Of a stretch of DNA of 64,000 nucleotides, positions 15,951 to 58,700 are shown in pieces. Numbering within the stretch: position 1 is the stretch's first letter; each line of letters opens with the position of its first letter. The translations under genes and the position numbers were made by a program. The notes beneath the pieces were generated by a model, which saw only the letters and a list, made by a program, of their open reading frames with translations, was not told where the DNA came from and did not search any database. Origin of the DNA: Raillietiella orientalis (Eukaryota). The DNA lies in assembly GCA_036172245.1 (NCBI GenBank), contig JAYWIR010000006.1:2356001-2420000 (forward strand), written 5' to 3'.

Positions 15951-17323
15951 GAAGAACTTGGGAGAAATTCGAAAAAGAAGGAAGTTTCCCCCTTTCGTTG
16001 GTTTCTACGCGAGCGTCTTCCAGGAGAAAGGAGAAACGGCTCTTGATGGAGCGCTTCCTCTGGGCACACGGACCGGAAAAGTTCTTTCCCCCGAAAGGGG
16101 GGTGCGGGTTTCGCGGCTTGGAAAGCTAACTCTTGGCCTGCGGAAGCCGGAGAGGCTTCCGAATGGTCGATGGGGGGGGGGGCATGAGGCATAGAAACTG
16201 TGTCGGAGAAACCTCCCCGTCCCCGGTCCGCGCCAACGCCTCGTGCAGACTCGATAGCCAGTCGGCCGGTGCGCTCGCATCGCTCTGCGCTAGCCCACCG
16301 TCGCTGCAGCCGCTACGGCGGATCAGAAGGAACGGGGCTCTTCGGGGAACGCTGGAGGGTCGCCTGAATGAACGAGCCACTTCTCCAGGGTCAAACGAAG
16401 GGAGGGCTGCTTTCCTCCGCATTTTCCGCCCTCACCTTCAGGCGTTCAGCTGACCCACTGCACGGAGAGGCTGGGAAGAAAAGAGATGCTTCCGGTGATG
16501 TGCTCCTCCGAGGCCCTCGCAACGCCAAACTCGTTTTTCTTCCCCTACTCCTCATCCCCATCATCTTGCCCTCTTCGCGGAGCTTTGCTCTCGTCATTCC
16601 CCAGAGGAGCCTTCGGGTGGCTGCTTAGCGAGGGGTCGCGGGGAGTTCTCCTGCTCTCCGTCGCAGAGAGTCACGAGCCTCTCGTAAGAAAGGCAGCAGC
16701 CCGGATGGTCGAAGACGGCCCGCTCGCCCCATCCATTGAGGACTCAGGGTCTCTGAGCCGAGCGGAAGCTCCTGGACCTCCCCAAGACAAGCGAGCACTG
16801 CTGGAGTCCCGCCTTCCTCCTCCCACACCTCCGTCCACGGCGAACCTCCCTCTCGAAAGGCTCCCCTGCCTCTGTCGGAGACCACCCGACAGAGGAAGGG
16901 GCGCGCTGTGCCGAGTGGCTCGCGGGACGTCTGAGCTCGTTCCGACCCTGTTGCCGGCGAGCTCCTTCCTCCACACAAGAAGCCCACGGCCCCTGGGACC
17001 CCCAGAGGCGTTTGTTCCTCCTCACGCAAGGGCCACCTCGCTCCACTCTCAACGGGGAGTGCTGCTCAGCAGTATACCGGGACTGACCCCCTGACCGCAG
17101 CCTCCGCATCTCGGAAAGACAAGAAGCGACCTCCTCGGTCTGCGAGGAGCGGAGGGGATAGCTCCAGGAGTTTCTCCTTGTGCAGGATTGCACCCCGGCT
17201 CCTAGACTTGGATCAACAGGGCGTGCGTGCGTGTTGGGAGAGAGGGAGGGGGAAGGAAGGCGAGGCAAACTCCTTTCTTGTTGGTAAAAGACGACCCGAA
17301 CCAGCTGGGTGAAAAGACTTGGT

Positions 17324-17640
17324 TTATCACCCAGTCACGCAAGGACGTTTATTACAAAAAATAATAAGCATACATGCGTAGGACCGATGGCCCTACATCG
17401 TCGGAAAATGTGCCCTTTTCTGCTGGATGATCTTCAGGGAAAAGGACATCACTCGCAGGGCTTTACACCTGGCAGGCTAGTAGTCACGGTGACTCCCTTG
17501 CCGTGCTCTGAGCGTCCCGTCTGGAATAGGGTCTCGGAGCAAACGAGAATGAAGCTCCCGGATGTACACGCTTCGGCTGTACATATACTAACATTGGAAC
17601 GATACAGAGAAGATTAGCATTACCCCTGAGCAAGGATGAC
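17324..17640 (-). mobile_element. 3' terminus of Tx1/L1-like LINE
   Basis: GGTTTATCACCCAGTCACGCAAGGACGTTTATTACAAAAAATAA...GTAGG..CCTACATCGTC aligns with 57096-57185. Confidence 0.7.
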
Positions 17641-17904
17641 ACGCAAAATCGTGAAGCGTTCCCGGAAGTTAGTACCTCGAGGACCTCGGATGATCCTATT
17701 GTCTCCCCCCGCTCCCCGAGCCTCCTCCCGTGGCAACCTCGTGACCATGCGAGCTCGAAGCAAGCGTCACCTTTGTAGCCTGAGGGAAATGCGCGAAGCG
17801 GGGCATCGGATCCGGGACGGAGCCCCGGATTCGCGGAACGAAGGGAAAAATTCGTGATCCTTCCGTTTTTAGGGAGACTCCGCTCATGATGAAGACGACG
17901 ACTG

Positions 17905-18300
17905 TGAAGAGGAGGAGGAGGAAGGGAGAGGAAGAGAAAGAAAGGAAGAGGAAGAAAGAGGGAAGAGGAAAAGAGGAGGAATGGAGGAGGAGAAGGGATG
18001 AAGGAAAAGAAAGAAGGGTGGAGGAATGAAAGAGGAACGCAAGACGGAGAGGGGAGGAAAGGAGGAGGAGAAAGGATATATCAGCAATCGGGAACGAAGC
18101 ACCCTTCGGGATGAGGGTGGAGTCGCCCTGAACCTTGATTTGTGGGAACGCCCCACACCCGACACTACATCCTGCAACAGGGAGCGAAGGAAAAGCGACA
18201 AGGACGGATACATCTCGGTGTTTAGGGAGGGATGCGTCTCCTCTTTGGTTTACGGAACGGAGAAGTTTCAAAGCATGTCTTTTCGGGGAGGGAGCTGTTT
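17905..18300 (+). repeat. Repeat family B (polypurine tract plus ~170-bp core), copy 1
   Basis: Core TCAGCAATCGGGAACGAAGCACCCTTCGGGATGAGGG...GCCCTGAACCTTGATTT...CCCACACCCGACAC recurs at 19.1 kb (+) and 28.0 kb (-). Confidence 0.9.
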
Positions 18301-19099
18301 ATCTGCAGGACTTTAGAAAGGGAGGATCGGGATGATGGCTAACGTCGAGAGTGCAAGCGGTTCTGAAGGTGGAGGCGGCCGGATTCTGCAGCTAAGCGAC
18401 TTCTGAGCGATGACTTTTTCTTGTGGCTGAGCGGACCAAGTGCAGGTGAGCACTCATTCAGCCTCAGGGCTCCTTCAGTCTGATTCCAGAGGAAGGCGGG
18501 AAGTGGGAACTGAGGACCCCACACATCAGGCGCCTCTGAGGACGGAGTCCTCTCTTTCGAGGAAGAACTCAGTCTCAAAAGGCGAGCTGCTGCTCCAGCA
18601 GACCATGCGGAAGCCAACATCCTGTTAGTTCCATGGCGGGGACGCCATTCCGGGTCCCAAGTTTTACCGGCTTTCTGAAACCGCCGATAGAAGTCGCTTC
18701 TTTCTGGTTCAGAAGAAAAAGAGGAAGTAGGGGAGTTGTGGCCCGCCACCGTGTTCTCCTGCGCTGCCACCGCTGCTTTTGAGTCCTTCAGGAGAGGAGT
18801 TCCCGGCTCTTCCTTGTTACGCTCCCGGTGAATGGTCTGGACGGAAGCAGAAAACGCTTTCTTTCCTGCGGTCCGGCGACGCTCCCATCCGTTCTCATCG
18901 CAGGGGAACGGAGACTCCTTCCTCCAAGGATATTCCCTTGGACCCTGAGGAGGCTGCGTCCATCTTCTTTCTAGACTTCTTCTCCTTGGCTGCAGACGGC
19001 GCCTTCTCGCCCTCCTTCAGCCTAGGGGAACTTTCTCATCGTCGCCTATCGCGCGCCCGATTGCTCCCGAAAGGTTCGCTGTCAGCCATGCTCCTTCAG

Positions 19100-19255
19100 G
19101 TAGAAGGAGAAAGGATCTGTCAGCAATCGGGAACGAAGCACTCTTCGGGATGAAGGATAACCGCCCTGAACCTTGATTTCTGGAAACGCCCCCTTACGAC
19201 ATCATGTCCTGAAACGGAGCGGGGGAAAAGCGAGAAGGACGGACACATCTCGCCT
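19100..19255 (+). repeat. Repeat family B, core-only copy 2
   Basis: TCAGCAATCGGGAACGAAGCACTCTTCGGGATGAAGG..CGCCCTGAACCTTGATTTCTGG. Confidence 0.85.
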
Positions 19256-19509
19256 TCTGTCCTTCAGGAACCTCCCCTGCGTCCGCTTCGTAGTTTTCGT
19301 CCGCGGAGCGACTTAAATCCAGGAGCCACCTCCCTCCCTCTGACTTCTCGAACGTTCCAGGGGATCTCCATCCCAGCTCGGCAATCGGCCAAATAGGTCC
19401 AGTGGAACAGGACCGCCGAGCGATTTTTTTTCCCCTTTTTTTGCTTCGCTTAGTGCTGAAGACCAGGGGCTCACAAAGCTCCTGAAGCACCGTCCACGCC
19501 ACCTGAGGG

Positions 19510-20162
19510 TGCGTGTCAACTCTTCAAGTTATAAGGGGTACCTCGGAGGGATCAACTCACGAATCCAGGGAGGCTTTGGTGAAAGGAGTCCGTTCTTCTT
19601 ACCCTTCGGAGGGAATCACGATAGAAACCTCCCTCTTATTACTTCCGGAGGGACCCCCATCATTTCTTCTCCGGAGTAAACCCGAAAAGGATGCGTTCCT
19701 TGCTTCCTCCTCTGAAGAGAACCCTGGAGGGCCGCTTCCCTTTTTATTTAAAGGGTACTCCGCAAAGGAAACAGGCAACCCTCCGAGGGAGGTATCATCC
19801 ATGGTACGCGATGAAAGTCTCCCACCATCTCCCCAGAGAAAGGGACAGGCTCCATTTTCACAACCGGAGGAGAATCCCGAAGAGGAGCGGCTCTTTGGTT
19901 CCGGAAAGGATCCAGGAGGATTAACTTCCAATTCCGGTCAGCCAACGGGGGCATCCGGTTTCCGGCTTCCACCGATGCGGTACCCGAATCCTATCGACCA
20001 GCCAACCAGCGTCGTCCTGAGAAGGAGAGGGAGGAAGGGAATCGAAACCCACGACGCAACCATTTCTCTGGTGTCAGTCCTTCCCTGGGCGGGATTCGAA
20101 CCCGCAACGCTGAGTTTCAAGCGTGGAGGCCGCCGCAGCCACACGGCCGGCCAACGTGGGCT
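19510..20162 (-). mobile_element. SINE family A, near full length, tRNA-derived head
   Basis: Minus-strand B-box GGTTCGAATCC (20092-20102) in a GCGGG/CCCGC T-arm, a second B-box-like GGGTTTCGATTCCC (20037-20050), and a body shared with three other copies. Confidence 0.85.
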
Positions 20163-20199
20163 GGCATTCCACCCCAATCCAGAATCGCTCTGAATTGGG

Positions 20200-23100
20200 G
20201 TGGAAATTTCCTCTCTACTCTCACTGAGCACCTGCTTACTGCCCGGAGGAATTAATTCGAGGCCATCGAGCAGAGTAGCGTCCGTTCCAGGGCTCTGGGA
20301 TCAGGAGCTTCCCTCCTGCAGAGTCCACAGGAGCACGCGGGAGCGCGCAGGGGCAATCTGACCTTCGATTGTTGCTTCCAAGTTCCCCAACTCAGCAGCT
20401 ACAGATGCGCGGATTCTGATGGGAGCCGCAGCTCTAACCATAGGAAGATGGCGGACAGGCGACCTTTTCTGGATCCAAGAGAAGACGAGATAAATTTTCC
20501 GAAAGTGCGCTTCCCCCCAACACTGCTATTTTCCCCATTCATCTCCCACAGACGCGTTTCGCGCCGAGATCATCGTGATTTATCGCAGCCACTTTGCATC
20601 CAGATCTCTGCGCACGGAGACGGAGAAGCCGCCTATTTACAGACACCACCCGTGAAGGCTGTTTGACAACGAGGACGAGTTCGTCAGTGAAATGCAAAGA
20701 GCGGGCACTGTCTCAAGGACTTTTCCTTCCGAGTCTCCGAAGGAGGAAAAGAAGGGGCTCCAGCGCGAAGGTGGGCAAGGCGGACGAATACTTGCCCCTG
20801 CGGTTTCAGAGAACCTTCCTTCGGGGAGATGATGCCTGGCGTCTCGCGACCTCTCACGAGTCTCCATTTCGATATCGATCCACAGCCCTCTCCCTCGAAA
20901 CTTTGGACTTCCTCATTCGGAGATAAGCCGCAAAGTTTTCCTCAGCATCCCGACCTCCCTGAGCCTCGGCGATCTCGGAATTCCGCGCTATCCCTCCCCC
21001 CCGCAACACTGATAGCGCGATGCGAACCATCAGACGCCCCAAGGAACCAGCCAATTGCGATCGAGGGGAGGGCATGGATGAGGTACGGTGAAGCGAGGCT
21101 CGTCCCTCGGACTCCTATAGCATGGGGCACTCACTACGAGTGAAGGGGGAGAGACAGGAGCGCTGACCGGATCGCTCTCTTCTGGTGAGCACCAGAGCCA
21201 TCGTTAACCCGCTTTCTGAAACTTACTCCCCTCCTCGGTCTACGCATCATCTCATCATTTATGAGATTTCTTCGTCTCTCTTTCCACACTTTACGATTCT
21301 CCTCCCTCCACTTAATGCTCCAGGGTGAGCGACTGAACGGAAGCAACTCTTCGAGTGCGGCTTCGCAGCGTGACGTCAGCGTTCTCGAGCAGCACGGCAC
21401 CCAATAATGCCATCCCTAACAATCCCAACAATCCCATCTAAAAATAGGCTCTGGGAAGAAGCCCGCCTCGAGTGTAGCTTTGCGCCGAATAGGAGCGAGG
21501 CCGGAGCTGGGCCGGTTTTAAGCAGCTCACTCTATAGGAGTGCTCACTGTCTCCGCCGGCACGTCTCTCTTGCATATGACTTTCTCTACTGATACCCCTA
21601 GGGAGATAAAGGATCCTAGGCGTAGCTAGAATGAACCAAATACTCTTCTTCGTCAGCAGAGATCCAGCAAGTCTCCTACCTCGAACCTTCCACCATCCCA
21701 CAAGTCTCACACCTTCAGGAGAGAGAGCGGGGAAGAAGAGGAGGAAGAAAAGAAACAGGAGAGATCTCCTTTACTCCGAGACATGGCTAAAGAGATCCTT
21801 CCCTCAGGGGGGAAAGCGATTCGGCGAAAAGCAAAGAGGACCCGCCGAAGAACGCAAACGGGCCTTGTTGCGGAGATCTCCCGAAGAGGTCATCTGCAGA
21901 AGCGGTGGCTCCGACTGCCGTAGGAAACAACAGGAGAGAACCCGTCTGAGGAAGCTCACGCAGCGACTGTGATGTGACGGGGTTACGGGGTGGTGCTGTG
22001 TGGCACGCCGTCCAGCAAGGCGGTCAGCGGGCCGGGATCCGTGACGGCCGCGCGCCCTGGAAACCATCCCCATCCTCTCCTTCGCGCCTGAATTTCCCCC
22101 TTCCCCCGTACGCGTTCATGCGCGAATCCACGGCGAACCATGGTCCTGTGCATCTGGCCGCAAGTGGGATCGCAGTTCATCTCGGAACGGATGCTGCCAG
22201 CTACTTGGCGGTTGCAGGCGCTGGCGTCCGAAGCTGGTCTCAGCGGGAAGCATGCCATCCCGGCTATGGAATTGAGTGTTCTCAGGACTCGTTCCCCTTC
22301 TCGATACGTCGTCCAGAGGGAGAATTGCTGTGATGACTGATATCAGGGGCAGTCAGACGTGCGGCCCTGGGTTTTGGAAGGGCGGCTTCGGAACGCTGCT
22401 GCTCGACCTGCGGTCGTGGTGGCTGGCTCTGCCGACGGGCGCCGCGGCGTGATGATGATCACCTGTTCCTCGCCCACTCCGAGATCACGTGGGAGCGCAG
22501 TTGACGAGCTGAGGGGCGTGTGCAGTGCAGACTGGTTGGATCCGTCCCGCTTTCGCATGCGGACTCCATTCTCACCCGCTTGGACCTCAGCATCCGACAA
22601 TGGAAAATCCTTGTCATCACCCAAAGGCGCGGACTTCAGTTGCCCCGCTTTCGGCTTCACCTCAGTGGACCAACCACCACTTACCTTCCACGTAAGAAAA
22701 ACACAAGGAAGTCGCTCAATCGATGCTCTGCAACCAGCCAAACTGGGACGATGCTGTTTGTCCATGCGACCCCGCGTTCAGCCCCAAGAAACTAGGGGGA
22801 GTCATCCGTCACCCTTGCCACCTTCCCACACCATGAACTTTCACACCTGCTTCGGCAGGGAAAGGCGGAGGAGTCTGGAAGTTCATAGAGTGGGGATGCC
22901 TCTGAACCTGAGGCCTAGCGTGGACGAGGAGCAAAGCCGGAGGATCATCCTTTTGCTTCCGGGAATTTCGGAAGATTGCAGGAGCCGTAAATGCCTGCGG
23001 CCAGTTCCGACGAACCGGTAACCGCCTGTTGCTCGTGTTCCCTCCCCCTACGCCCCCTCATCGGGGAAGGCGCTGCTTGCCGAGGGAAGATCTCTAGGAG

Positions 23101-28415: not shown

Positions 28416-28419
28416 CTCG

Positions 28420-30640: not shown

Positions 30641-30810
30641 TTCCTTGGTCCCCAGCCTGGAGTTGGAGGCTGCGGCCTCCGCTCGTGAAGAGCCGAGAGT
30701 CGCTGGTTCGAATCCCGCCTAAGGAAGGATCGAGAACGGGGTGCGTCGTGGGTTCGAGTTCCCCGCAAGATGACGCTGCTTGGCCTGTAGACTTCAGGTG
30801 GGGCACTGGT
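30641..30810 (+). mobile_element. SINE family A head, split by a LINE insertion
   Basis: TTCCTTGG...GGTTCGAATCCCGCCTAAGGAA, then a second B-box-like GGGTTCGAGTTCCC; matches the reverse complement of 20010-20150. Confidence 0.85.
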
Positions 30811-31612
30811 TTTCCACCCTGGTTCGTCGGGGCGTTTATTTAACACAAAATAAACATTTAAGATTTTTGTGGTTGGACCACTGGTCTAACCACGTCCTTT
30901 CTGTAGATACCCTGCCGTGTTACCGGTACGCAGACCAGTGAGGACCACCACAATAACAGAAGGGAGGGGCCAAACAATAAGAAAAATAAACAAAACAATT
31001 CTGGAGGTGGGAGTGTGGGAAGGGCGCAGTTCTCTGCATCTTTTGGAGGATACCGACAAGGTCTTGTTTGATATTGACGTCCAGATGGGGCCATCAGGCC
31101 TCTATCCGTAAAAAGCGGAGAGTGAAGTGGATGGCGTCCCTGTCTTCAGCTCCTCCGTTGGCTACGCTCCACGTGGCCACGATCCCACGGAGGCAGCAAA
31201 GTGCTGCAAAGGCTGCGGCTGGAGCCTTTGCAGCAGGGCGTCTCTTACAAAGAAAAGTATTACGTCTCTAGCGTTGCCGCCAGGGATTCCAAGGGTTGCG
31301 GCAAAGCATCCCCAAAGGGATCGGAAGACTATACAGTCCACTAGGAGGTGCGAGTGGGATTCCTGCTCCCCGCAACTGACGCAGCTCTGGTCCACACACA
31401 CCCGTGTCCAGTGATGCCGAAGAACGTCGCACGGGAGGCATCAGTGCAGTAGCATCAATGCCGACTCCTGCTACCTCAAAGGGAGGGTGTGGGTGTTCAT
31501 GGGCACCGGGGACAATGCAGTTCTTCCTCCGAAATACCCAGTAGCATGCCCCAGCACAAAAGTCCACGGAGTTGAGCAATCGAGTTCGCAGCGTCCGTTT
31601 TCACTAACGCCG
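30811..31612 (-). mobile_element. 5'-truncated Tx1/L1-like LINE with 17-bp TSD
   Basis: CVSCGEQESHSHLLVDC knuckle; AATAAA near the 3' end; TSD TCAGGTG(GG/CA)GCACTGGT at 30794-30810 and 31613-31629. Confidence 0.85.
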
Positions 31613-31870
31613 TCAGGTGCAGCACTGGTGAAAGCCTTATGCCTACCTTGACTGGAAGTCGAATTCCTGGTATTCTTCCAGGAATCAAGGAGTCTAGATT
31701 CCTTCGAGGTTCTTCTCCGGTTGTGCGAAGCAGACATCTCCCCCCTACCCAACCCCTCTTACTATGGAGCTGGCGGACTGATGATGCCTCTCCAGTGTGC
31801 AAAGAAGCGCGCTGTTCCCTTCGGGAAGCGCCCTTCAGACAAAATTCGCATCGTTCCTTGGATTCTGGAA
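31613..31870 (+). mobile_element. SINE family A body, continuing after the LINE insertion
   Basis: CTTCCAGGAATCAAGGAG and GCGCGCTGTTCCCTTCGGGAAGCGCCCTTC match the reverse complement of 49480-49720. Confidence 0.8.
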
Positions 31871-33794: not shown

Positions 33795-34901
33795 CAGAGA
33801 AATAGGCTAAGGAAACAGCTAGAGTACCAGAAGTGAATCTCCGCTGCCTGCCTCCAGAGGACCGGTTCGGATGCTCTCTGGCTGGGCCGAGGAACGTCCG
33901 ACTACCCTGCGAGAAGAGCCAAACGCGCCGCTGGGCAGACCGGGAGGAACGAACGGCCTCGATTTTCCTGCTTGCTCGAAAGGTTTCGCCTCCCTGCTAC
34001 GTGATCCGGCGCGAGAGGTCGCAGAGGCCACGCCCTCCGGCGACGCAGCCACGAACGGCAGGAGCAAAGGAACGCGCATGCGCGGACAAGCCATTTAACG
34101 AACCGGCGAGAAACTTTCCTCACGAGTAGCCGTTGCCTCCCCCGTCTCGCCCATTCTAAAGGGCAGGTCGGTCTGAACGCTTCCGGGCCATCTGGGTTTG
34201 CGACTGGAAAGTTTCTGAACCTCACGGAGGACACAACCAAGGGTGGTGGGATGGACGGCGTAGAATAAGAGTTTACGGGCTGGTAAATCCACGTCTGTCC
34301 ACGTTCGTCCCGAGGGTTCCTTTCATCCCGCTTCCAGATCGGACAGTTTCTCGGAGTTTCACACAGGGACGGAGGCGGCGACTGCCATGGGCGCCCTTGG
34401 ACAGAGGTCGCATTCTTCCTCCATTTCGCAGCGCTGCCGCCCTCCCGTGGCAGGAGAAGCTATCGCGGATGGCCAAGGAACTCCAGGGAATTTCGTGCTT
34501 CCCCAATGACTTTTGGCTTCCTGTCCATTCGCCCGCTCCCCGTCCACCTTTCTGCGGCGCCTCCGCCTAATCCCTCGAGCAAAGTTTGAAACGCCGGCTG
34601 CTTCCTGTGAGAGGCAATCGCCCGCCCCGCCATCCCGTCCAGCGTTCCTCCAGCGGGTGCTCGCTTGGCGCTCGAGGTCCCAGGGATGCAAAAACGGTAG
34701 CGATCTTAAAAGTGAGAGAGGCTGCGAATGGGGTGGGCAGTCGGTAGGTGATGGAAGACCAATCGATGGGATTGTACGCAGCGGTGCTGGGATGAAGGCA
34801 GATAGCTCTTCGAAGGTCAGGGATGCTGAGCAGCAAGGATTTCTCCTGCATGGATGGGATGGACGTTACTGAGTTGTCGTGGTGGTTTTTTGCACGGTAT
34901 T

Positions 34902-35277
34902 CAGGGGCACTCGGTACTCGTCGGTAATTCGCTCCGAAACTCGTGACGAGTACCGAAACCGACGAGTACCGAACGAGTCCCTTTCTAGGCTTCGTGATAT
35001 CATTTTTAACCATTTCAGGACCCATAAATTAACGCTTTAAATGCACACAAAGCACACACACAAAAAAGGAACTATTCGGGGGACACTCTATGGAAGTGTT
35101 TGGTACTGTCCGCGAGCTATCACGAGACGAAAACCTTCATTTGTTTCATCATGAAAGTGGGGTGTCGAGTTCTAAGCATGCGCCTCCGAGTGTCGAAAGA
35201 TTTTTTTTTCCTCGTCAAAATGCGACGAGTACTGAGCTTGCTGAGTTCCGACAGCGTCGAGTACCGAGGCACCGCTG
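34902..35277 (+). mobile_element. Tc1/pogo(Tigger)-type MITE, copy 1
   Basis: TIRs CAGGGGCACTCGGTACTCG / CGAGTACCGAGGCACCGCTG; near-identical inverted copy at 59314-59688; internal CGACGAGTAC repeats. Confidence 0.85.
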
Positions 35278-35329
35278 TGACAAATTTACAATTTTTGTGG
35301 TGGAACACGTGGTTCCATCACATGCTCAA

Positions 35330-36500
35330 AACCCAGTGAACCCAGTTAACCTGCCAACTACCGGTACGCAGACAGGCGAGGTGCACTTCGGCAGCGAAAG
35401 GGAAGAGAAAAGCGAAAACAAAAATGAACAAACAAAAACAAAAAGACGGGAAAGTTTATCTCGGAAAAAAGGAGGAGGGGAGCTGGTGCAGGAATCAATC
35501 GCTGGCAGGCCTCCTCTGCATCCTCTGCAGGATGCTGGCGAGATCGCTCCTGGCTGCTGTCCAATCGGAGCCATCTAGTGGCAGCCCTTGGGAAGATCCT
35601 TCACTAGTGGATCCTGCCCCTCTCCTGTTCTCTTCCACTTCGGGTCGGTAGCTGCCCGAACGCGTTCCAGGCAGCCACCGACCCGCGGAGGCAGCAGGGA
35701 ACTGCGAGGGACACGACTGGCGGCAGTGCGGCCCGCATGAAGGGGCGTTTCGTCACATCTCTGAGGTTGCACGCAGAGATCCAGAGGAACGTCGCGAAAC
35801 GTTCTCAGAGGGACCGGAAGGTGACACATTCAAGAAGTAGGTGCAGGGGGACGGGTCTCCCCTTCCCCGCACCTGTCGCACTCCGCTGTGATCCAATGGT
35901 GAAGGCGCGCTCTGAGTGGGATCCTCCAGTGCAAGACCAGTCAGCACGCCAGCATCTCCCTATGAAAGACCCCAGAGCGGAAGTCCTTTGGACGGGCACT
36001 CGGATGGTGGGGAGTTGTAGAGAGGTCGACTTTCCCTTATCAACAGCCCTGCGACCTTAAGGACCTCGTCCGTCCGCGCCGCAAGCGTTCCTCTCAGAAG
36101 AGCTCGCTGCTCTGCCGCGGGGACTCGCGCCGTTTGCAGAGCGGACTCCTCTCTGTGCATGTGGCTGAGAGCCAACGGCACCACCGTCGCAGCTTCTGCA
36201 CTTTGCCAGTCCTGGGGGCATCCGCTCGCCGCGCCGGTGCTGGCGGGCGACCAGCCGGCGCTACTCTTCGGCGAAACCGCGCGGGGAGCGCCCCTCGTCG
36301 AGTCGACCCATCCCCGTCGAGGGGAAACGGACACCCGTTCCTAGGGTCTCCTGCACAAGAACGGCTTCATTGCGCCCAATCTGGGGAAGTCCTCTTTGCG
36401 CGATTATCTGTCCGCTTCCACGCTCCTGGTGATCCCGCGAGGATAGGGAGCACTGGCGACGCGACCCTCGTCCAGGGAACCGTCTGGAGGTTGCCGTCAT
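35330..36500 (-). mobile_element. Decayed Tx1/L1-like ORF2 C-terminus and 3' UTR
   Basis: ECDRCGEGET../LHLLLECVTFRSL knuckle; TACCGGTACGCAGAC block shared with 30.92 kb. Confidence 0.75.
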
Positions 36501-36899: not shown

Positions 36900-38200
36900 T
36901 CCGGACGCGCAGCCCGGCTGAACTCCGAGGCCATGCTGGGAGCCGCAGGCGGAAAACGGAAGGCTAAGGTCGAAAGCGCCGCGGCGGGACGGCCCCGCTG
37001 TCGCTGCTGCCGAGCACCCGCCACAGTTTAAGGGGATTCGGCTTATCCCCAGGAGCAGCTCGCCTCCCTACTGGAAGGCCAAACATGGATCTCCTGCCGC
37101 CCGACGAACTTCAATGCTTGGCGTCAGGAGACTGTTGAGTCCTGGGCTATGTTACAGGGAATGAGCCCTCAAGATCCTCACCTTCTGCGAAATCTGTTGC
37201 CACGACCGCTGGATATGGTGATGCAGGACGTGGTAAAGTGGTCAACCCTGGACGACATACCCCTTGACGTAGCACCGTCTCCCCTCAGGACCGGAGATGA
37301 CAGTAGCCTGCCGGCAAGGTGGGGGTTTCCGTGCACCGTCGCGGGAATGGAGAAACTTCTGGGCGAGTTTGAGACGCGCGAGTTAGTGGATGCTGCCACA
37401 CCGTGTGCTTTGGCGACGGGGTTCCTTCGGTGGTTGGGAATCCTTAAGTATTGCCCCCAAAGAACTTATGGTCCCCTCCTCATTGCTTGGACACTTCGGT
37501 GTTCCCCCTCTCCTGGTAGCAGGCCGTACAGCTCTTCCTCCACCGGGGATTTCAGTGCAAAGAACAGAGGCACCCCGGTTTCCGCCTGGGGGTGCATCCC
37601 CGAACTGCGCCAGGAGCTGTCAGCGGGAGTCGATCCCACCGCACCTGCTTTTGGACTGCAACGCCGTCTTCCAGGAACTGCGGCGGAAGCTAGAGTCAGC
37701 ACTCCTGCACCAGGAGGACACCGTCTGCGACCTGCTGTGGCGGTTCTTCGCGCCGGGAGGACTCTCGGCGGACGCGGTGAACGCAACCATCGTCACAGTG
37801 CTCGAGAAGACCACGACAGCGGAGGGAGATCACCTCCATGGCAGCCGCTCACGAGAGGACAGCTGCAAAGTGGACTCACCTGCAAAAGGAAGGCGAGAAG
37901 GAGATCGCCGGCATCCAGCGCCGGTTCTGCAGTGAAGGAATGGCAGACAGCAATGACCCTTGTCCCTTGCCTTCCTCTATTTATTTTTTATTAGTTTGTC
38001 TTCTTTCTTATTCCCTTATTCCTTTCGCGCCGTAACTTTCCCGATTTTTATCCCGGTGCATACGGCACAAACCCAAAGACGCGTGACCCAATCCCCCAGA
38101 TTTCCTCTTTTTTCTTGTCTCCATACCCCACCCGTCTCCAGTTCCGGACTTTTAGATATTTCGACCTGCGTGTCGGTGGACCCTTCGCCTGAGCTTCTGT
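36900..38200 (+). mobile_element. Decayed Tx1/L1-like ORF2 C-terminus and pyrimidine-rich 3' UTR
   Basis: ORFs 37149-37994 and 37390-37935 join by frameshift; SPNCARSCQRESIPPHLLLDC knuckle. Confidence 0.7.
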
Positions 38201-38206
38201 CTTTAG

Positions 38207-40300
38207 TTTGTCATCTGGTTGCGCCGGTGCGTTTATTTATATAAAAAATAAACCTACAGGTCAGTGACAAGACGCTTGGTCCTGACACGTGTAAATATAC
38301 CAAAAAGAACCTGTCGAGAACCGGGACGCAGTCCAGCGAGGTTCTCCTCGGCAGCAGAGGAGAAGTGGAAACAAAAAAAAAAAAAAATGAAACAAAAAAA
38401 TATATACAAAAAAATGGGAATGTTCGGGAAGGGATCACCGGGTGCTGGAGGGCGTCCTTGCATCCTATGTAGGATTCCGGCAAGTTCCTGTTTCAAGGTT
38501 CCCAGATGAAGCGATCTTGACGCTATCCTTATGAAGAGGATGGCAGAATGGATGGCGTCCCTGTCGTCCTGGCCTGCTCTGGCTCTGCTCCATGCAGCCA
38601 CGATCCTGCTAGGTAGAAAAGTGTTGCCAGGGATGCAGTGAGGGAGTCGCTTCAGAAGATCTCTGGGGTTGCCCTTGGGGGTCCGCAGGGACGCGGCGAA
38701 GCGTTTTCACAGGAGGCGGAGGGCAACACAATCCATGAGCAGGTGCGGGAGAGACTCATTCTCTTTGCGCCTGCCGCAGTTCGGGCTTAAATTACCCCAG
38801 GCCCAATGGTGTCGGCGGCCTTGCAGCGTTTCACGGGAGGCCTCAGTGCAACAGTAGGGTCAAGCTAGCACTGCTCCAGCACTCTGAGGGCCATTGCATC
38901 TCCTCCGAAGGAATTTCTAGTAGCTCTCCCCAGAGTAGCAGTCTTTTTAGAGGGACCCTCGGAATGGCAGCATCTGTTAGTTCCCGAATTGTCCACGCAT
39001 TTAGATGCCTTCTGTCTTTGGTTGGGAACCAGCGTGTTTCCAGCTGGTTTTTCTTTATAAAACGAACGCCTCTGCGCTACCAGGTGAAAGATTCCCGGAA
39101 GAGAGAGCCAGCTGGATCGGTTTCTTACCACCAGTTCGGATTCCTTTGAGAGGAACCGTCCCCAGAGAGACCTACGTGACACCGTTCCCACGCAGTCCTA
39201 TTCTTTGGCGAAGAATAGGAGCAGCATCAGATGACTCTTTTCATCTGCTCCTCTGACCTGGATGCTGGAGAGAGCTGCTCTCAGAACTCGCCCGGTTTCC
39301 CCGGAGTCCTGACGAGCGGGGGTCCCGTGATCCACGATGTCGAACGGCCTCCTCGGAGCACAGCACAAGGTCTTGATGGATTCACCAGGTCACGAGGGGT
39401 GCTTTGGCGCACGCGGTGCTGCCGGACATGAGACTGCGTGGTTCTCATCGGGGTGAACCAACGCGGCACCACGGTGGCTCGCAAGCGGCTGACCCAACAT
39501 ACTGCATGCTTCCGCCTATTCGACTTCCGTCTCCAACTCCCCCTGGAACTTCTGTCTTCGTTTGGGAGCCGGCTTTGCAACTTTCAACCCCCCTGCCTGG
39601 ACGGGAGAAAGAAACCACGCCGTGGCTCGTCTTCTGCCACTGCTCCTGCAGCGCTGCATTCACGTACCGCGGCGGCAGGGGACAGCACACACGGAAGGTG
39701 GGAAGCCACCTCGTTAGGGCGGAAGATTGCCAGACGCCGGCACGCGAGCTCCCCATCCCCTGCGCTGGGCTCGCCATGAGGGACGGCGTTCGCCCAGCAC
39801 GCGATCCTCGCCCTCGTGCCCGTGCGGAAATTGGTCTTTTCCCTAACCTCCAGCCGGCCCTCCGGTGCTGCGTGTGCTCCTCTTGTCGACGAGAGATCCT
39901 CGCAAGCCTTCCCGGACCCGTGGTCTTGCTCTCTAGTCCCGAAGAGTCCTCAAGGGAAGACCCCCGAAGACTCGTTGTCATCTTGGAAAGATTAAAGGAA
40001 TTTTGCAATGTTGCGGCTTGCACGGGAAGAATGCGGAAGTGGTGGCGGCGGCGGTGGCACATTCTCTCAGCCTCCTCGGATAAGAAGAATTTCGGCGCGC
40101 GCTTGAAATGAGAGGGGCCAAACCTTCTCCTCAACGGGGATGGAACCGGGAGATGCGCGGTGCGCAAACGAACAATCAGGAATGGATAAGACCGGTCTGC
40201 GGGGAGATGCCAGAGGTCAGTGGAAGCCGGACGGAGTCCTTCCCAAGTTTCCATCCCCCTCGAGGCGTCCGGAACGACCTCAGGATGCACGTGGTCAGTC
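38207..40300 (-). mobile_element. Decayed Tx1/L1-like LINE (RT end to 3' terminus)
   Basis: SSGLESKT (SGL.N.SK), LETRWFPT, PNCG..ENESLPHLLMDC knuckle; 3' part homologous to 30.8-31.4 kb. Confidence 0.8.
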
Positions 40301-45415: not shown

Positions 45416-46610
45416 GAGCGGCAGCGTGGAGGAAGAGGAAGCAGGCAAGGTCAGATATTCAATTCTCGTTGCGGACCTGTGACACGAAGCAATTAGGAAA
45501 CCGAAGCTTCCGATTCAGAGCTAAAAAGATAAGCGGTCAATGTGCAAGTCATTTGCTGCAGAAGAAAGGCAGCAGCTCACTTTTTCTTTCCTGGGAGGGA
45601 ATTTATTTATGCTCCTCCACGTTGCGTTCCGTGAGCTGCAAAGCAAACAGAAACGCGGCGCCATGGCAACGGTGGACGGAAAAACAAAGAAGAAAAGAAA
45701 AGAATGGAGAAAAATGCGCGAATAAGACACGCTGCTGCGAGACCGTCTTCTTTCCAGGAGGAATTATGAGAACTGTTCCGGATAAAGACACGACAAATTG
45801 GGACAGGAAGTGGCGATGGAGTGCTTGAAAATTTTCGAGCTTCGCGCGTGCACCGCGGCGACTGCAGCTGAGGGTTTCCCATGTCGACGCTTCCCGGAGG
45901 CTTCCAAATCGGGAGCGGACGACCTGCGATTTCCGATGAAATATTTCGGCGCCGTCGAGAGCCAGCGGAAAGCACGAAGTGGGTGGGAGTGCGTGGATGG
46001 AGGGGGGCGACGTGCAGCGAGAGAGAGCCATCCGGTCCTTTCGACATTTCACTCCTGTTCCCATCTCCTTCTATTTTTACCGCGCCTCTTAATATTTCGT
46101 GAATTCATCTTCCGGGCGAGGAAGCCACCAGGACCAGTAGCGCTGTGATCAGCGCCATCCCGGCGTTTCCCGGGGGCAGTCGGTGCTTCGGCTGTTTTCC
46201 TGCCCGGGCCCACGGCATCCACGAAATCAACCAGACGGTGTATCAAGGAAAGAGGAAGGTGGTCTCGCCTTTCCTTTTCGGGAGGAGGGAGGAGGAGGAA
46301 AGGAAATAAATAAAAATAAATAAATTCAGGCTCACGAAAAATTCAGTTTTCTCCTTCTCATTTTTATCTTCTTCCTCCCTTTTCCTTTCCCTCACTGCGT
46401 GTGCTGTGTGACCCTTTGGGTGAGGAGCTCATCAGATTTTAAAACGCTGTGTGATACGCGAGTCGCAGTCGTGACCTCTGTGGACGGACTGCTTTTTCTC
46501 GTACCGCGTGCTCTATCGAGGTCGACTGACTATGTAAAGTGCTGATTAAAGTTACTATTGCAATTCCTTATTTACACCACATTAAATAAAATATTGTCAT
46601 CCTCGGTTTT

Positions 46611-47476
46611 CCCCAGTCCGACATGCGGTGGGGTGAATTTAGTTTCCACTTTCGTTGATACAGGAGTTGGTCAGTGTCACTGGCTTTCACATTTTCTCGC
46701 TTTCGGGGTTGGTCTTCGGGCATCGAGTCACGGAGTCTGCGTGGGGATTTCACTCACTTGACGAGGTTCCCGAATCCTTCGCAGGATGTAACGGGACGTC
46801 CAAGTGGGAGTCCGTCCACAGTTCCTGATCCCAATTTCCCTTTTCACTAATCCTTTCAGGATTTCCACTGCTGGCACACTGTTTATTCCGGTTTTTGCCC
46901 TTCTCACCACGATGCTCGTGATAAAGAGGGTGATGATGGTGGTGCGGGCCATTGGGCTGTATCGGGGAACGTTGCCGTTCCCTTCAAACATCCCTGCCAG
47001 GATCTTCATCCTGTCCATCCTCTGCAGGCCTGTCGCCTCCTTCAGCTTGGCCGAGTCCCGGCGCAGCGTCGGGCAGGCGAGCACGTGGAGTTGGGTTTCC
47101 CTGGCTCCACAGGCCTTGCACATCTCGTCCTGCGCGTTCCCTGACCAGTGTCTCGTCCTCGTGCCGCTCAGGATGCCTCCGTGACGAAATATCAGGAGGT
47201 CCTCCTGAGTGTCGGGTGGTAAAGCGCTCGTCCAGACCGTGGTTCCAACCGCCAGCAGGTTCACCTGGCTCGCGGTCACGCGCAGAGCTTGGAGGTTGGC
47301 GATCACAGACAGAGCTTCTCCTCGTCCGGATTCTTCTTCACTGCTTCTCGGATGTTTCCTCTGGTGATCAGGAGCCAGCAGTTGGATTCCTGATTTGTCC
47401 AAAGCTCTCGATATCTGTGGGTAAATCTTCCCATCATCTTCTTGGTGAGGCGGAGACCGCCTTTTGTCGCATTTTT
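46611..47476 (-). mobile_element. Young 5'-truncated LINE (ORF2 C-terminus) with 14-bp TSD
   Basis: Uninterrupted ORF 46728-47480 with CKACGARETQLHVLAC (zf-RVT-like); perfect TSD TCATCCTCGGTTTT at 46597-46610 and 47477-47490. Confidence 0.9.
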
Positions 47477-47599
47477 TCATCCTCGGTTTTTCAGAGAGGT
47501 GGCTCTCTGGAAAACGGAGAACAGTTAGCCGATATAAATAGAATTTTCTTTACTGTTGCTAAGGGAACTGTAAGAACGTAAGCGTATGCGTCCGTCTCA

Positions 47600-49239: not shown

Positions 49240-49850
49240 ACTCGACTCTTCAAGTTAGGAGTCACTGCGGCAGGGGACCGCGCTATGAATCCTGGAAGGG
49301 CTCCGGAGGAAGGAGTCCGTTCCTCTCTCACACTTGGGAGGGAAACCCAAAGGGAATCTCTTCCTCCTCCTGTTTCCGGAGGATCCCCCGGGAAATGATC
49401 ATTCCTCATTTCTTCTCCGAAAGGAACCCGGAAAAGATCCGCTCCTTGTTTCTTCCTCTGAAGAGAACCCCGAACGGACGCTTCCGAATTTCTCCGAAGG
49501 GCGCTCCACGAAGGAAGCAGCGCGTTTCTTACACTCTGGAGAAGCAACCCCCGAGAAAGGAGATATCAACCAGCTTCAATGTACGCGATGGTACGGCCCC
49601 ATTTTCATCAGCGGAGGAGAACCTTGGAGGGAATCGGCGCTCCTTGATTCCTGGAAGGACCCCGGAGGGTCAACTTGCAATTCCGTCCAGTCAACGGGGC
49701 ATCCGGATTTCACCGGTGCCGCACCCGGAGCTCGTGGACCAGACAGCGTCCTCCTGACGGGGGAGGAATCGAGACCCAAAAAGCACCCATTTCTCAGCGT
49801 CCATCCTTCCCCCGGGCGGGATTCGAACCCACAGCGCGTGGTACCAACGT
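49240..49850 (-). mobile_element. SINE family A copy
   Basis: B-box at 49819-49829, second degenerate box near 49765, body colinear with 19.5-20.1 kb, terminus GACTCTTCAAGTT. Confidence 0.85.
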
Positions 49851-49959
49851 CAGAGGGATGAGGCTAATATGAGATTTTCGGGAGATTCAGTCTGCGGAGC
49901 ATAATGAAGCAAGGATCTTCGTGGCTAAGAGATTAGTTGCGAGATAGTGATCTCGAAAT

Positions 49960-52399: not shown

Positions 52400-53560
52400 A
52401 AGAGTATGATGATAGGTATAGGAAGAAGAGAAAGAGAGAGACTGAGAAACCGAAGAGAAACCGAGGTCCACGGAATATCAACATCACAGAGGAAGCTCAA
52501 AGGAGAGGCGATGAATGTGATTAAGAGGGAGTGTAGGAATTTGCAGTGATGAAAGACTGAGGCAGGGAGGCCAGCAATTCCATGAAGGCCGTGGACTCCT
52601 CTAGCAACGAAAAAAAGAAAAGTGGAACCGAAGATGGAGCCTGTCATGGAGGGTCTCAGAATAAAATATTCTATAGTTTGAGTAATGATAAACCAGAAGC
52701 CTGCAATGGAATTTTATTTTATTTTTTTCTCTCTCCCTCTGAACAGAGAGTGATGTGATTGAAATTCCCCATCTTAGGAGAAGAGCTACGTTGAGGAGTG
52801 GTACTTCAATAGCGGATGGTACAGAAGCGTAGAGGGGAGTTCAGGAAAGGTTGAATTTGTGACGCGGAGGAATGATCAAAAGAAAAGATGGCATCAGGCA
52901 AATGGAAAGATTCCTAAAGGAATGAATGCGACTGCTGCAAATTTGAATGGGTTCATCGGGAGGACGCCGATGAATGAGGATTTCCGTTTTACGCCTTTCC
53001 CCCAAAGGAATCTGCTCCCGATTATGGCACCAACGTCGTCATCCAACTTATAACCACCATTTTACCATCACATCTACTACCACTACCGAGGACGGAGTAT
53101 ATTTCTAGGAGTGGAATAAGGAGAGGTGGATGTGTCGGGGTTCCTCTTGGGGTGAGGTTGGTGAGAAAGTGCGAGAGGTAGGCATAATAGATGGAGACGA
53201 GCTGTCTAGAGGTTCGCAGTGGCATGGTTAGGAAGAGAGATATGAAGAGATGGACGTGGTATGATGGCAATGTGTATGGCGCGAGCCTTGATTGGTCAAT
53301 AAGGAAGAAGGTGGAGGATAAGGCAATGAAAGTTTCCATGGAGACGTAACTTTGTGTATGTAAGTTGCTGTTGTTGGTTCCTGGTAACAGTTTAATGGAT
53401 CGAATGAAAATGAGTATAACTGAAGGTGAGACATGGATTTAAGTCCAATGTGATGTTTGATAGACAGTGAACTCATAGATGACCGATGGTTGGCTGGTTG
53501 TTGATTAGCTCATTCTAAGATTATGAACCGCAATAAAGGGTCATACAGGGTGTGAGAACC
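52400..53560 (-). mobile_element. Decayed I/Jockey-like RT fragment, copy a
   Basis: Homologous to 54.3-54.8 kb (GGTTGTTGATT.G..CATTCTAAGA..ATGAAC); FA(D)D-like remnant near 52.89 kb. Confidence 0.45.
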
Positions 53561-55070: not shown

Positions 55071-55120
55071 TGAGTATATCTATTGAAGGTAGTGCCCGGT
55101 TGGGCACACTACCTTCAATT

Positions 55121-55389
<269 letters not shown>

Positions 55390-56029
55390 AAATCCTTACA
55401 CCGTTTATATATATACACATATATATCAAATTCTTACTCCTTTCTCCTCCTTAGATTTTGTACACATACATGTACAAAATCTTTACTCCTTATACACACA
55501 AACACATATATAAGGAATAAGGATTTTATTTCCTCGGTTTTGAAAGAGCATCTGTGTAACCCAATACACTTGGGTCCCCGGAAAGAAAACTGGATTGTTC
55601 TTGAAAAATTTCTTCCAGCATGCTCTGGCTTCCTGGGGCAGATCAGAGGTCAAGAATATGAGGACGAGGAGAAAGGTGAATTCGTCATCAAACAGTCCGT
55701 CCCACATGCGAGACGTCGCCTCTCGGTACCGCCGTCGGCCGCGGGTTCGGGGCGCCCCGCCCCACCAGAGAAGCGGGAGAACGAGGCACACCTCAGCGGG
55801 AAAGGGCGCTTCCTCAGGTTCGGTGGCTCCGGACGAAGACGAGCGAGCGTCGCTCCTTCGCTAGCGGCAAGGGATCGAGGTCGGATGGATAACAGGGCAG
55901 GGAAGGCGGGGGAGTCACCGCTGCGCCCCGTGCAGTTGGTGGTCTCCGAAGAAGGACGGTGGGAATCGGATGTTCCTGCAGAAACAGGGTCACCTACAGG
56001 ACCTCGGTAGATCGTGGGTGTTCCTGTGC

Positions 56030-56600
56030 TGTGACAGCATGGCCCATCACAGCATCACAGCTGGACAGTCCTCCCAGAGAGATCTTCTTGCGCCTGAGGA
56101 TGTGGACCGGGACGCTGTCAACAATGGAGTCCAGGAACCCTGCACATTACTCTGAGACTCCCACCTCGCATCCGACTGGAGCTGGGCAGGTGTGTGAACC
56201 TCGGACCATGAGGCCTACGACTAAGCCCTTCTTGTGCTTTGCCTCTGGGAGTCTATCTGAAACCGATGGTCCAGTTCACGCACCACGTGGAATACCTCAC
56301 CCTGTCCCTTGGAGGACAGTGTCCATCTCTTGCCTTGGAAATTCTAGTCTGCAAGATATGCTTTCTTTGCGAGGTTTTTGTATCCCTTGAGGGCACGTTG
56401 CAGCCCAAAGTGCGTGCTCCTTTCCACTCGAAGTTTTCTCTAGTAGTGCCATCTACCGGCGACAGAGTTCCAGGTCGAGGCTTCCTGCTTCCTTCAGTGA
56501 TCTCAGTGCGACCTTCCCTCTACGGAGTCTGGGTGGAGAGCCTCTAGCTTTCTTCCGCTTCCTCTTGTCGGAGGTCTTGTGGAACTCTCCTTCTGATGCT
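56030..56600 (+). mobile_element. Decayed LINE RT C-terminal fragment
   Basis: MAHHSIT (AYADDIT-like), LGVY, LSLGG..LVCK and YGVW in order. Confidence 0.45.
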
Positions 56601-57097
56601 GCGACCGGGAACGGACCACTCGAGTGAGGTGAGAAGCCAACTTGCAGCGATGGAACCAGTGAATGCTTCAGGAAATTTTTGGATCACTGCAACGGTCGAA
56701 CCTACCGGCGACGGACCCTTCGCAGTCAGGAAGGAAGGAGATGAAGGGTTCTTTCAGGTCCAGCCTCGCATCGTTCAGGGGAAGATGAAAGAAGAACCTT
56801 ATAGAACCCCTATTACTTCCGACAGCCCTTGGGGAGCGAATCGTTTTTAGCCTCCGTTTCCCGAAGGGACTACGGGGCATTAGCTGCTATAGGGAAGTGA
56901 AGGGGACGAGGAAACAAGTCCATCTGCTCCGTTCCCATTCCCATTCCATTTTTTGGATTCTTCACCACTTGTCACTGCGAGCTCCTCGAGGTAGATGAGG
57001 AAGGATGTTTCCTTTGCCTGTCGTCAACCCCTTTTCGTACGCAAACGTCACATGGGACTCGCGGAGGTTTCGGCAAGCTATCCGCCCCAGCATTTGG

Positions 57098-58700
57098 TTT
57101 ATCATCTGATCACGCCGGGGCGTTTATTATAAAAAAATAAATACACGTGTGTAGGACTTTCGCCCCTACATCGTCCGAAAATGCTTGGAATCCGCCGAGT
57201 AACCGGCACGCCGGTCTTGTAAGATTCCCAGCAGCTCGTCCCAGCGCTACAGTCCCTTCGGTGGGGCACTTGGGGTCGCAGCGACCGTGAGCTGACCCGT
57301 GGTCCAGCCACCTAGTTCCCTCGTCTTCTGACTGATTTCGCAACTGACTTCCCATTAGTCGTCTGGTTACTGTTCAGGTGCTCCCTGAGCGAGGGTAGTG
57401 TTGCGGCTAGGGAGGTTCTTTGCGCCCACGTCCACGTGATGGGCTGCACGATGACGCTCTGCAGCGAGTGGTTGTTGTAGGAGGAATGCAGCAGTCGCTG
57501 CCGCATCTCCGGGCTCGCTTCGTAGTCCTTGGCCCATGTGCGAACGGTTACCTGCAACCGGGCACTACCGTTCGCCAGCCGGCAGAAGATCCAGTTGTTC
57601 GTTCTGGTCAGTTTGGCCACTCTCCGGGGCTCCAGTCCTCAGCGGGACACGTTGCACCTGCCCCGCCGCGCCAGTAACGAAGGCAGTCCAGCGTAGCCGG
57701 TGGCTAGCTTGACCAAGTATCGTGCAGGCTCGCATCAGTTCGTGCTGCAAAGTTTCACTACGAGGGCAAGCATCCTCCACTGGAGCTGCCGTTCCAGGCT
57801 CTCTACTGTCAGGAGGTCGAGGCCTCCTGACAGTAGAGAGCGTCGCGACGCTAGCGCATAAGTCCTTCAGGCGGACTGGGGGACTCCCTGTGCCTCAGAG
57901 GGCGATTCTGAGGAGGTCCTTCATCCGCCTTTCAATGCTACTGGGTGGGGGAAAACAAAAAGCAGGGGGCAGAAGAGGGAGGTCATGAACGTGTTCCACA
58001 CTGCGGCTTGTTCCGGCAAGAAACTTGTCACCCTGAAATGGGCCGATCGCCGACTGCGCCTTCTGGACGAAGCCTCCGCCGGAGCATAGTCCTCCATCGG
58101 TACACCGAGGTACTTATAGTATCAAACAGTGAGGATCCCTGAGCATTTGGTGTGCAACTTGCTGCTGTCCTGCCCCCGAGATTCGAACGTGAGAGAAAAT
58201 TGCGAGTCTGCACGCGCTTTGATCTCTACATTAGCAGCGTCCAGAAAGTGCGTGAAGACGTCTGTGCCCGCCCGGGTTTCCTGGAGCTCCTTGACAGTCG
58301 TGTGTCGAAACCGAAATTCCTCCAGATGGCATTGCCATGGGAATTTACGGGTTCGCAGGACAGACGATCTCGTCAACGATCACCGAGTGGGAGGGTGCTT
58401 TGCTCACTCGCATTCTTACGAATTGCCGGCAACAATGCCTCATTCCCTGGCAACCTCCGCTCAGCGTTCCCATTGTTCTTTCTCTCCTCCACTAACAATG
58501 CATGGTTCCCTGGCAACCCTTCGAGCCCTCTCTCTCATTCAGCTCGTTTGGGCTGCCTGCCGATCGTAGTACTGGCCTAGGTAAGCTTTGCTCCGCCGCG
58601 TAGCCGAAAGAATGGCGAGGAGGACTTTCGGCTTCCCTGACGGCCACCCGAGCGCGTGCAGGATAGCTCCATCTCCTGATCTCCTGGAACCACGGGGAGA
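57098..58700 (-). mobile_element. Decayed Tx1/L1-like LINE (RT motif 4 to 3' terminus)
   Basis: SGGRQGS..SSPF, IVDEIVC (YADDI-like), KCSGI (KYLGI-like), GGLDL, and a conserved 3' terminus with AATAAA. Confidence 0.75.
57798..57841. repeat. Perfect hairpin, 19-bp stem and 6-nt loop, inside decayed ORF2
   Basis: GCTCTCTACTGTCAGGAGG-tcgagg-CCTCCTGACAGTAGAGAGC. Confidence 0.95.

Follow-up and report, generated by a model that had tools for sequence, protein, structure and literature searches.

A GGT target motif at the 3′ ends of LINE-like copies without poly(A) in a 64,000-nt window of Raillietiella orientalis

How does a retrotransposon that leaves no poly(A) behind come to end, copy after copy, on the same few bases? 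This question is raised by a stretch of 64,000 nt of the Raillietiella orientalis contig JAYWIR010000006.1 (the window, within which all counts and searches were made unless stated otherwise), in which five copies of LINEs (long interspersed nuclear elements), here called A to E, meet the flanking DNA at similar short strings. A previous reading of the sequence only had proposed that these elements either nick their target preferentially after YGGT or use a fixed RNA end in AAACC(A), reminiscent of a transfer RNA (tRNA) CCA end, to anneal to the nicked DNA. Here, we found that a short target motif overlaps the conserved end of the element in every copy for which a target-site duplication (TSD) was found. 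We favour a model in which pairing of the RNA template with this motif, rather than the endonuclease, fixes the point at which reverse transcription begins.

A GGT motif present in the target before insertion

The copies were found and related to one another by alignment and by nhmmer searches. The five that carry the junctions in question are:

Copy A: 17319 to 17410, minus strand, a 3′ tail fragment only of ~92 nt, ending GGTGATAAACC and 77% identical to 57094-57183.
Copy B: 30811 to 31612, minus strand, a 5′-truncated LINE fragment of 802 bp that has the complete 3′ tail and a CxxC..H..C motif, ending GGTGGAAAA(CC).
Copy C: 38205 to 39008, minus strand, a 5′-truncated LINE fragment of 804 bp, ending GATGACAAACT and nested in an older copy (G/H, below).
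Copy D: 46611 to 47476, minus strand, an 866-bp fragment of a distantly related family with a 248-codon frame open to its 5′ end and a CKACG..H..C motif; CTGGGG precedes its TSD.
Copy E: 57099 to 58141, minus strand, a 5′-truncated LINE fragment of 1043 bp, ending GATGATAA(ACC).

On the plus strand, the junctions read TTGGTTT at 17319 (A), CTGGTTTT at 30806 (B), TTAGTTT at 38203 (C), TCGGTTTT at 46603 (D) and TTGGTTT at 57094 (E), each string lying where the sequence-only reading had placed it; the corresponding 3′ ends in element sense are GGTGATAAACC, GGTGGAAAACC, GATGACAAACT, GGGGAAAACC and GATGATAAACC. Indeed, a poly(A) run is absent from all five junctions, as that reading had also noted, with 0-3 A at most following the element ends. 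The extended motif YRGTTTNNCAYC occurs 4 times in the window versus 0.88 times expected, a count reached in 1 of 100 shuffles. Since these four occurrences belong to homologous tails, the repeated motif at the left junctions alone is not independent evidence, and the count by itself would show common descent and not an insertion rule. A word TTGGTTTA at 18245 was considered as a sixth junction and rejected, as there is no tail behind it.

The right-hand copy of a TSD is the unmodified target and can be read independently of the element. We searched for TSDs as words that the left flank shares with the following few kb, and compared their scores with those at 400 random positions (4-kb search) and, in a separate test, with those at 3000 random positions. 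Four copies possess a TSD, versus two (those of D and E) in the previous reading. Both of these are present, and B and C are added, with TSDs located where the homology to the sister copies stops (31599-31600 in B, 39013 in C). For copy A none was found (best score 8).

B, left TSD: 30794 to 30810, TCAGGTGGGGCACTGGT, score 12, p 0.02 (400 positions).
B, right TSD: 31613 to 31629, TCAGGTGCAGCACTGGT, then GAAAGCC; aligns to uninterrupted paralogues at 49671-49771 and within 19650-20200.
C, left TSD: 38194 to 38204, CTTCTGTCTTT, which can be extended to 38208 if one mismatch is allowed (A for G at 38205).
C, right TSD: 39009 to 39023, CTTCTGTCTTTGGTT, then GGGAACC; the CTTCTGTCTTT part is 39009-39019.
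D, left TSD: 46597 to 46610, TCATCCTCGGTTTT, 14/14 match.
D, right TSD: 47477 to 47490, TCATCCTCGGTTTT, then TCAGAG, 14/14 match.
E, left TSD: 57089 to 57098, AGCATTTGGT, 10/10 match, weak alone.
E, right TSD: 58142 to 58151, AGCATTTGGT, then GTGCAAC, 10/10 match.

The TSD of B, TCAGGTG[GG/CA]GCACTGGT, matches at 15 of 17 positions. That of C matches at 11 of 11 (score 12.5; p 0.02 against 400 positions and 0.045 against 3000), or at 14 of 15 if it is extended through GGTT, and the 14/14 match of D spans the whole GGTTTT (score 15; p ≤0.005 and 0.007, respectively).

What does the target look like at the point of insertion? With a slash for the end of the TSD, the right-hand copies read ACTGGT/GAAAG in B, TTTGGT/GTGC in E, TTTGGTT/GGG in C and CTCGGTTTT/TCAG in D. 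The unmodified target thus ends in YGGT(T) in 4/4 copies with a TSD, overlapping the conserved terminus of the element, which extends to all four what had been noticed for two. Given a frequency of GGT at a fixed place of 0.0136, this is expected by chance with a probability of ~3e-8 (~2.5e-6 without E). As the right-hand copies are target, the last 3-6 bases of the apparent element end (A)nCC match sequence that pre-existed at the site. Copy B allows a direct view of this, because its host repeat occurs without interruption in two paralogues, at 49242-49837 and 19516-20136. The two halves of the TSD of B align to one paralogue segment (...GGGTGCGGCACCGGT/GAAATCC and ...GGGTACCGCATCGGT/GGAAGCC), and at the place of insertion these empty sites read CACCGGT/GAAAT and CATCGGT/GGAAG. 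Both paralogues carry GGT, and hence GGT was in the target before the insertion. In this small sample, the insertion rule is real.

Beyond YGGT, the target contexts differ: a SINE-like repeat (SINE, short interspersed nuclear element) in B, a LINE tail in C and two stretches without a paralogue in the window in D and E. With four targets in four contexts, these insertions do not show the one long target of Tx1-type site specificity, to which the previous reading had pointed. Nor does the idea of a tRNA-like CCA end hold, since the apparent ends are CCA in A, B and E, CTA in C and CCG in D. Moreover, in B, D and E the TSD includes the base that follows CC, which is therefore target-derived and leaves the analogy unsupported.

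Two further regularities concern the T residues around GG. The T-run following GG at the left junction is constant within each family, with a length of 3 in A, C and E and of 4 in B and D, and the target itself has 1 T after GG in B, 1 in E, 2 in C and 5 in D. At the three bases 5′ of GG, T occupies 10 of 15 positions (p 3.5e-4).

The repeat that hosts B is ~600 bp long and SINE-like, with members at 3931-4148, 19516-20136, 49242-49837 and 30669-30810 plus 31613-31860. It carries a tRNA-like T-arm, GGTTCGAATCCCGCC (sense), at one end, and its 3′ end is unlike the LINE tail.

The conserved 3′ tail and the identity of the copies

A, B, C, E and, in part, an older fragment H have a 3′ tail of ~95 nt in common. 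It consists of a first hairpin, GTAGGGCC..GGTCCTAC in A, whose stem is formed from other sequences in B, C and H; an AU hairpin, GTTTATT...AATAAAC, which holds AATAAA; and a stretch CGCCCCGGCG..ACCAGATGAYAAACC. The final base of AAACY lies exactly 27 nt from AATAAA in 4/4 tails, a spacing that matches the geometry of a putative cleavage and polyadenylation site. RNAalifold predicted two hairpins from five tails, with 17 pairs of which 4 are changed on both sides; hence, in this small sample, the stem-loops of the conserved tail are kept by compensatory changes. Folds of single sequences recover both hairpins, with weak z-scores of -0.02 to -1.83.

The relatives that complete the set are:

Copy F: 35284 to 36100, minus strand, of the same superfamily, cut short by ~47 nt at its 3′ end next to an abutting young 384-bp repeat (34898-35280), which makes the junction uninformative.
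Copy G: 37087 to 38204, plus strand, an older copy found by alignment and nhmmer, split by the insertion of C.
Fragment H: 39020 to 39093, plus strand, the rest of the 3′ tail of G beyond C (E=6.5e-4, E=2.2e-9), ending ACCAGGTGAAAGATTCC without AAACC.
Copy I: 9356 to 9696, minus strand, old and weak (E=7e-4, E=3.1e-4), with a tail CCGGATGTCACGTCC without AAACC.

By their alignments, A, B, C and E (junctions at 17319, 30806, 38203 and 57094) belong to one diverged LINE superfamily. The tails of E and C are 84% identical over 51 nt. Copy C is nested in the 3′ tail of the older plus-strand G/H, a member of the same superfamily, at the 5′ arm of its first hairpin; 7 of the 8 LINE copies found lie on the minus strand. 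Copy D stands apart: it shares ~15 terminal bases with A and has 31% identity over 51 amino acids to B around the CxxC..H..C motif (E=3.9e-4). The lengths of the five junction copies (~92, 802, 804, 866 and 1043 bp) reflect one position of the tail end and differing 5′ ends, with TSDs of 10-17 bp in 4/5, and such shared 3′ and differing 5′ ends are the usual mark of 5′-truncated LINEs. Taken together, we think it somewhat more probable than otherwise that the copies are decayed, 5′-truncated members of a LINE superfamily of the stringent type, in which the reverse transcriptase (RT) recognises a specific 3′ tail and not poly(A).

Is there coding evidence for a LINE? None of the 222 open reading frames of at least 110 amino acids in the window matched Pfam at E<=0.001. 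In 15 read-through frames (3.6-3.9 kb) upstream of the five junctions, neither an RVT nor an endonuclease domain was found, and the sole match was zf-RVT in B (E=0.08). Searched alone, a 102-residue stretch of B matched zf-RVT (PF13966) with E=0.0029 and 18.7 bits, under the gathering score of 27.5. This weak match is compatible with the L1/Tx1 superfamily, going by where the domain occurs. The copies are 3′ fragments of 0.09-1.05 kb, and the missing RT and endonuclease domains show an absence from the window, not from the family. For the 273-amino-acid open frame of D, there was no match among longer proteins and nothing beyond noise in the PDB at E<=10; its sole match in 1.84e9 representatives, a six-fold acyl-carrier repeat protein, was discarded as spurious. 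Its nearest feature clusters in a language-model resource (Atlas) carry PF13966 with a score of 0.93, and with a recognition value below the guide line we treat this as a lead only. Relatives of the family were also sought in metagenomes, where a strict tail pattern gave 0 matches; viral contigs also gave 0. A looser pattern gave five metagenomic loci (L001-L005), none with the hairpins or homology to the family, which we took as chance.

Several neighbouring features of the window were noted along the way. The 384-bp repeat that truncates the 3′ end of F is one of a young inverted pair (34898-35280 and 59311-59692), 96.6% identical. Approximately 150 bp from tail A, on the opposite strand, lies a full-length sequence similar to the U6 small nuclear RNA (snRNA) at 17564-17670 (plus strand; Rfam RF00026, 96.4 bits, model 1-105). 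A T-run terminator is missing behind it and no TATA is obvious upstream, and it is probably a retro-pseudogene. A U6/LINE chimera as the origin of copy A was rejected, because the U6-like sequence lies on the other strand and is directed away from the tail. Between ~48000 and 55000 the plus strand has few C and is rich in G and T (GC skew +0.2 to +0.5, GC 0.32-0.51), except where the SINE-like repeat breaks in at 49.2-49.8 kb; such a strong strand asymmetry looks as if an old element had undergone C-to-T decay or editing on one strand. The microsatellites (AT)50 and (AC)22 at 55153-55297 gave spurious matches to microRNA families of Rfam, below their gathering scores.

Proposed template-target pairing and its alternatives

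How could the end of an element and the target in front of it come to read the same? On balance, we lean towards an explanation in which the nicked target ...T(n)GGT(n) pairs with RNA ...A(3-4)CC, fixing the RT start and leaving out the poly(A). The transcript would be cleaved, and probably polyadenylated, at or just past CC, and the endonuclease of the element would nick T-rich DNA. The freed end ...T(n)GGT(n)-3′ would then pair with RNA ...A(n)CC, plus the first A residues of the poly(A) tail if present, with two G:C pairs setting the register. Synthesis of the complementary DNA (cDNA) would begin just inside the 3′ untranslated region (UTR), so that poly(A) would not be copied. The terminal AACC of each copy would be the GGTT of the target itself, and each landing on such a site would yield a daughter that again ends AAACC; between an 'encoded' and a 'read-through' terminus there would be no difference, as in R1 and R2. 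Because the cDNA is the plus strand here, the plus strand is also the primer strand, with the nick at the 3′ edge of the TSD or within the zone of overlap.

This pairing predicts that the related copies E and C carry the same 3 T although their targets had 1 and 2, as is the case. Given the AAUAAA 27 nt upstream, the RNA probably carries poly(A), and if this were primed without a register, one would expect variable T-runs and retained A tails, neither of which is seen. The enrichment of T on the 5′ side of GG is expected, too, if A residues come after CC in the RNA. We would go one step further only tentatively, namely to a 'CC register' used in several diverged lineages, whose polyadenylated template has an A-rich end broken by CC and is primed only at T(n)GGT(n). 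In this form of the model, which we regard as possible but doubtful, RT would start at a fixed internal base and skip the poly(A), and a relaxed T-tract preference of the L1 kind would become a rule for a short motif through the template, not through the endonuclease.

The two alternatives named in the sequence-only reading, a nick after YGGT and pairing through AAACC, turned out to be the right pair to compare; the window separates them only partly, and the fixed T-runs favour pairing. An endonuclease that prefers to nick just after YGGT would need no pairing at all: the RNA would end ...GAUGAYAA or ...GGRRAAA without CC, and the 'AAACC' terminus would be two or three templated A residues plus target sequence. 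The four sites accommodate such a nick (GGT^G in B and E, GGT^T in C and D), the T-run lengths are reproduced by 1 target T plus 2 or 3 templated ones, the old tails H and I do end without CC, and the endonucleases of Tx1L and R1Bm are known to be sequence-specific (PMC1950540). Still, the longer TSD overlaps would have to be coincidences, one more T in C (~1/4) and three more in D (~1/64). If the RNA is polyadenylated, as the position of AAUAAA makes likely, variable T-runs would be expected, yet 5/5 junctions have the 3 or 4 of their family, and a nicking preference gives no reason why the target motif should equal the conserved element end in lineages as distant as B and D. We therefore consider the endonuclease preference alone unlikely, and its account of the terminus equally so.

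The other route to pairing is an RNA that ends ...AAACC(A) without poly(A) and whose free end meets the target, the CCA-like version of the sequence-only reading. It would explain simply why poly(A) is absent from every copy, and LINEs that can do without poly(A) typically have a conserved stem-loop tail (PMC4176376, PMC3472496). It sits poorly with the constant 27 nt in 4/4 tails, the usual geometry for cleavage and polyadenylation, and with the T enrichment, which has a simpler source in A residues after CC; furthermore, the TSDs of B and E include the A of 'CCA', D has G and C ends CT, so that a fixed CCA is not seen. This makes a free CC(A) end quite improbable to us. Of the sequence-only reading, then, the overlap of a short target motif with the element end stands, on four TSDs and the empty sites of B, and the tRNA-CCA analogy falls. 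Lastly, there might be no rule, AAACY being the inherited last five bases and the TSD overlaps chance. Homologous tails make up 4/5 junctions, so that a common left string needs no special cause, and the TSD of E is weak when taken alone. But the right-hand TSD copies are not element sequence and nevertheless carry GGT in 4/4, both uninterrupted paralogues of B carry it, and the TSD of D runs 14/14 (p 0.007) through all of GGTTTT. We hold this to be very improbable indeed.

A number of points weigh against template-target pairing in a stringent-type LINE. The sample comprises four TSDs in one window, of which that of E (score 10, p 0.12-0.16) is not significant alone, and that of C, if taken through GGTT, requires one G-to-A change after insertion, at 38205. 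Copy D is only distantly related to the others (~15 terminal nt and a weak protein match), and the older tails H (ACCAGGTGAAAGATTCC) and I (CCGGATGTCACGTCC), both decayed and weakly aligned, lack AAACC. The LINE identity rests on the architecture and the sub-threshold zf-RVT match, with no RT found in the window, and it is from the tails, the TSDs, the pre-existing GGT and the lack of poly(A) that we infer where the RNA ends, that it is polyadenylated and that it pairs with the target. Finally, a fixed nick after GGT also yields the T-run lengths, at the cost of the two coincidences mentioned (one T more in C, TTT in D).

What would follow from template-target pairing? As it stands, we deal with an ordinary variation on target-primed reverse transcription, seen in four old insertions. 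If it were true genome-wide, this would be a compact natural LINE in which the RNA end, not the endonuclease, picks the insertion register, so that a change of two bases in the tail should retarget the element, and the family would take a middle position, with L1 and its poly(A) priming on one side and R1/SART-type elements with full site specificity on the other. For annotation, the last 3-6 'consensus' bases in such families are target, and calls of TSDs and boundaries need care.

Comparison with known systems

Is such a rule new? We found no description of this particular motif in the open-access literature searched. The previous reading had suggested an uncharacterised insertion rule, whereas its kind is already known from R1Bm and SART1Bm (PMC7265360), from RTE-related retroposons (PMC6007223) and from human L1 (PMC3649969).

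The tail itself is most reminiscent of stringent-type LINEs such as UnaL2 of eel, ZfL2 of zebrafish and LINE1-1_ZM and L1-1_CR of the L1 clade, for which PMC3472496 and PMC4176376 describe similar, compensated 3′ hairpins across diverged lineages and no need for a copied poly(A). L1-clade lineages with conserved 3′ stems thus exist, and Table 1 of PMC3472496 lists L1 families without a 3′ repeat, 5/15 in green algae and 9/233 in flowering plants. Most of these stringent-type LINEs differ from the copies described here by a terminus of short tandem repeats, for instance (TGTAA)n, (CA)n or (TTG)n, whereas here a single A(3-4)CC is found and AAUAAA lies inside a stem.

With regard to the target, Tx1-clade families (Tx1L, Keno, Kibi, Koshi, Tx1-Mar) are members of the L1 superfamily with target preferences (PMC4494074). 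They pick long specific targets, such as snRNA genes, a given DNA transposon or microsatellites (PMC4494074, PMC1950540), unlike the targets here, which agree only in YGGT. An overlap of the element 3′ end with the target is a trait shared with R1Bm, R2 and SART1Bm. As stated in PMC7265360, motifs of 3-4 nt in the 3′ UTR of SART1Bm (AGG, GGUU) were proposed to anneal to the nicked strand and to set the RT start, and accurate initiation by R1Bm requires downstream target sequence. These elements insert into one repeated gene or into telomeric repeats, in contrast to a motif of ~4-6 nt in four contexts here.

A relation between TSD and element terminus was likewise reported for RTE-related retroposons by Nishiyama and Ohshima (2018), where the TSD profile tracks the 3′ terminus: the first TSD base correlates with the 3′-terminal repeat, pointing to a template-dependent choice of the primer site (PMC6007223). 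The RTE clade has 3′ ends that resemble microsatellites and, one helical turn upstream, a T-stretch, neither of which was seen here. Human L1, finally, is alike in the proposed pairing of primer and RNA end, as its T-rich nicked target end must pair with the poly(A) of the RNA for priming, the 'snap-velcro' model; priming in L1 takes place inside the poly(A), and a long A tail is copied along (PMC3649969, PMC4014453). Here, unlike in L1, CC within the A-rich end would set the register and the tail is not copied. The copies described here therefore add one more case to a known kind of behaviour, their one elegant trait being a CC that would set the register inside an A-rich end.

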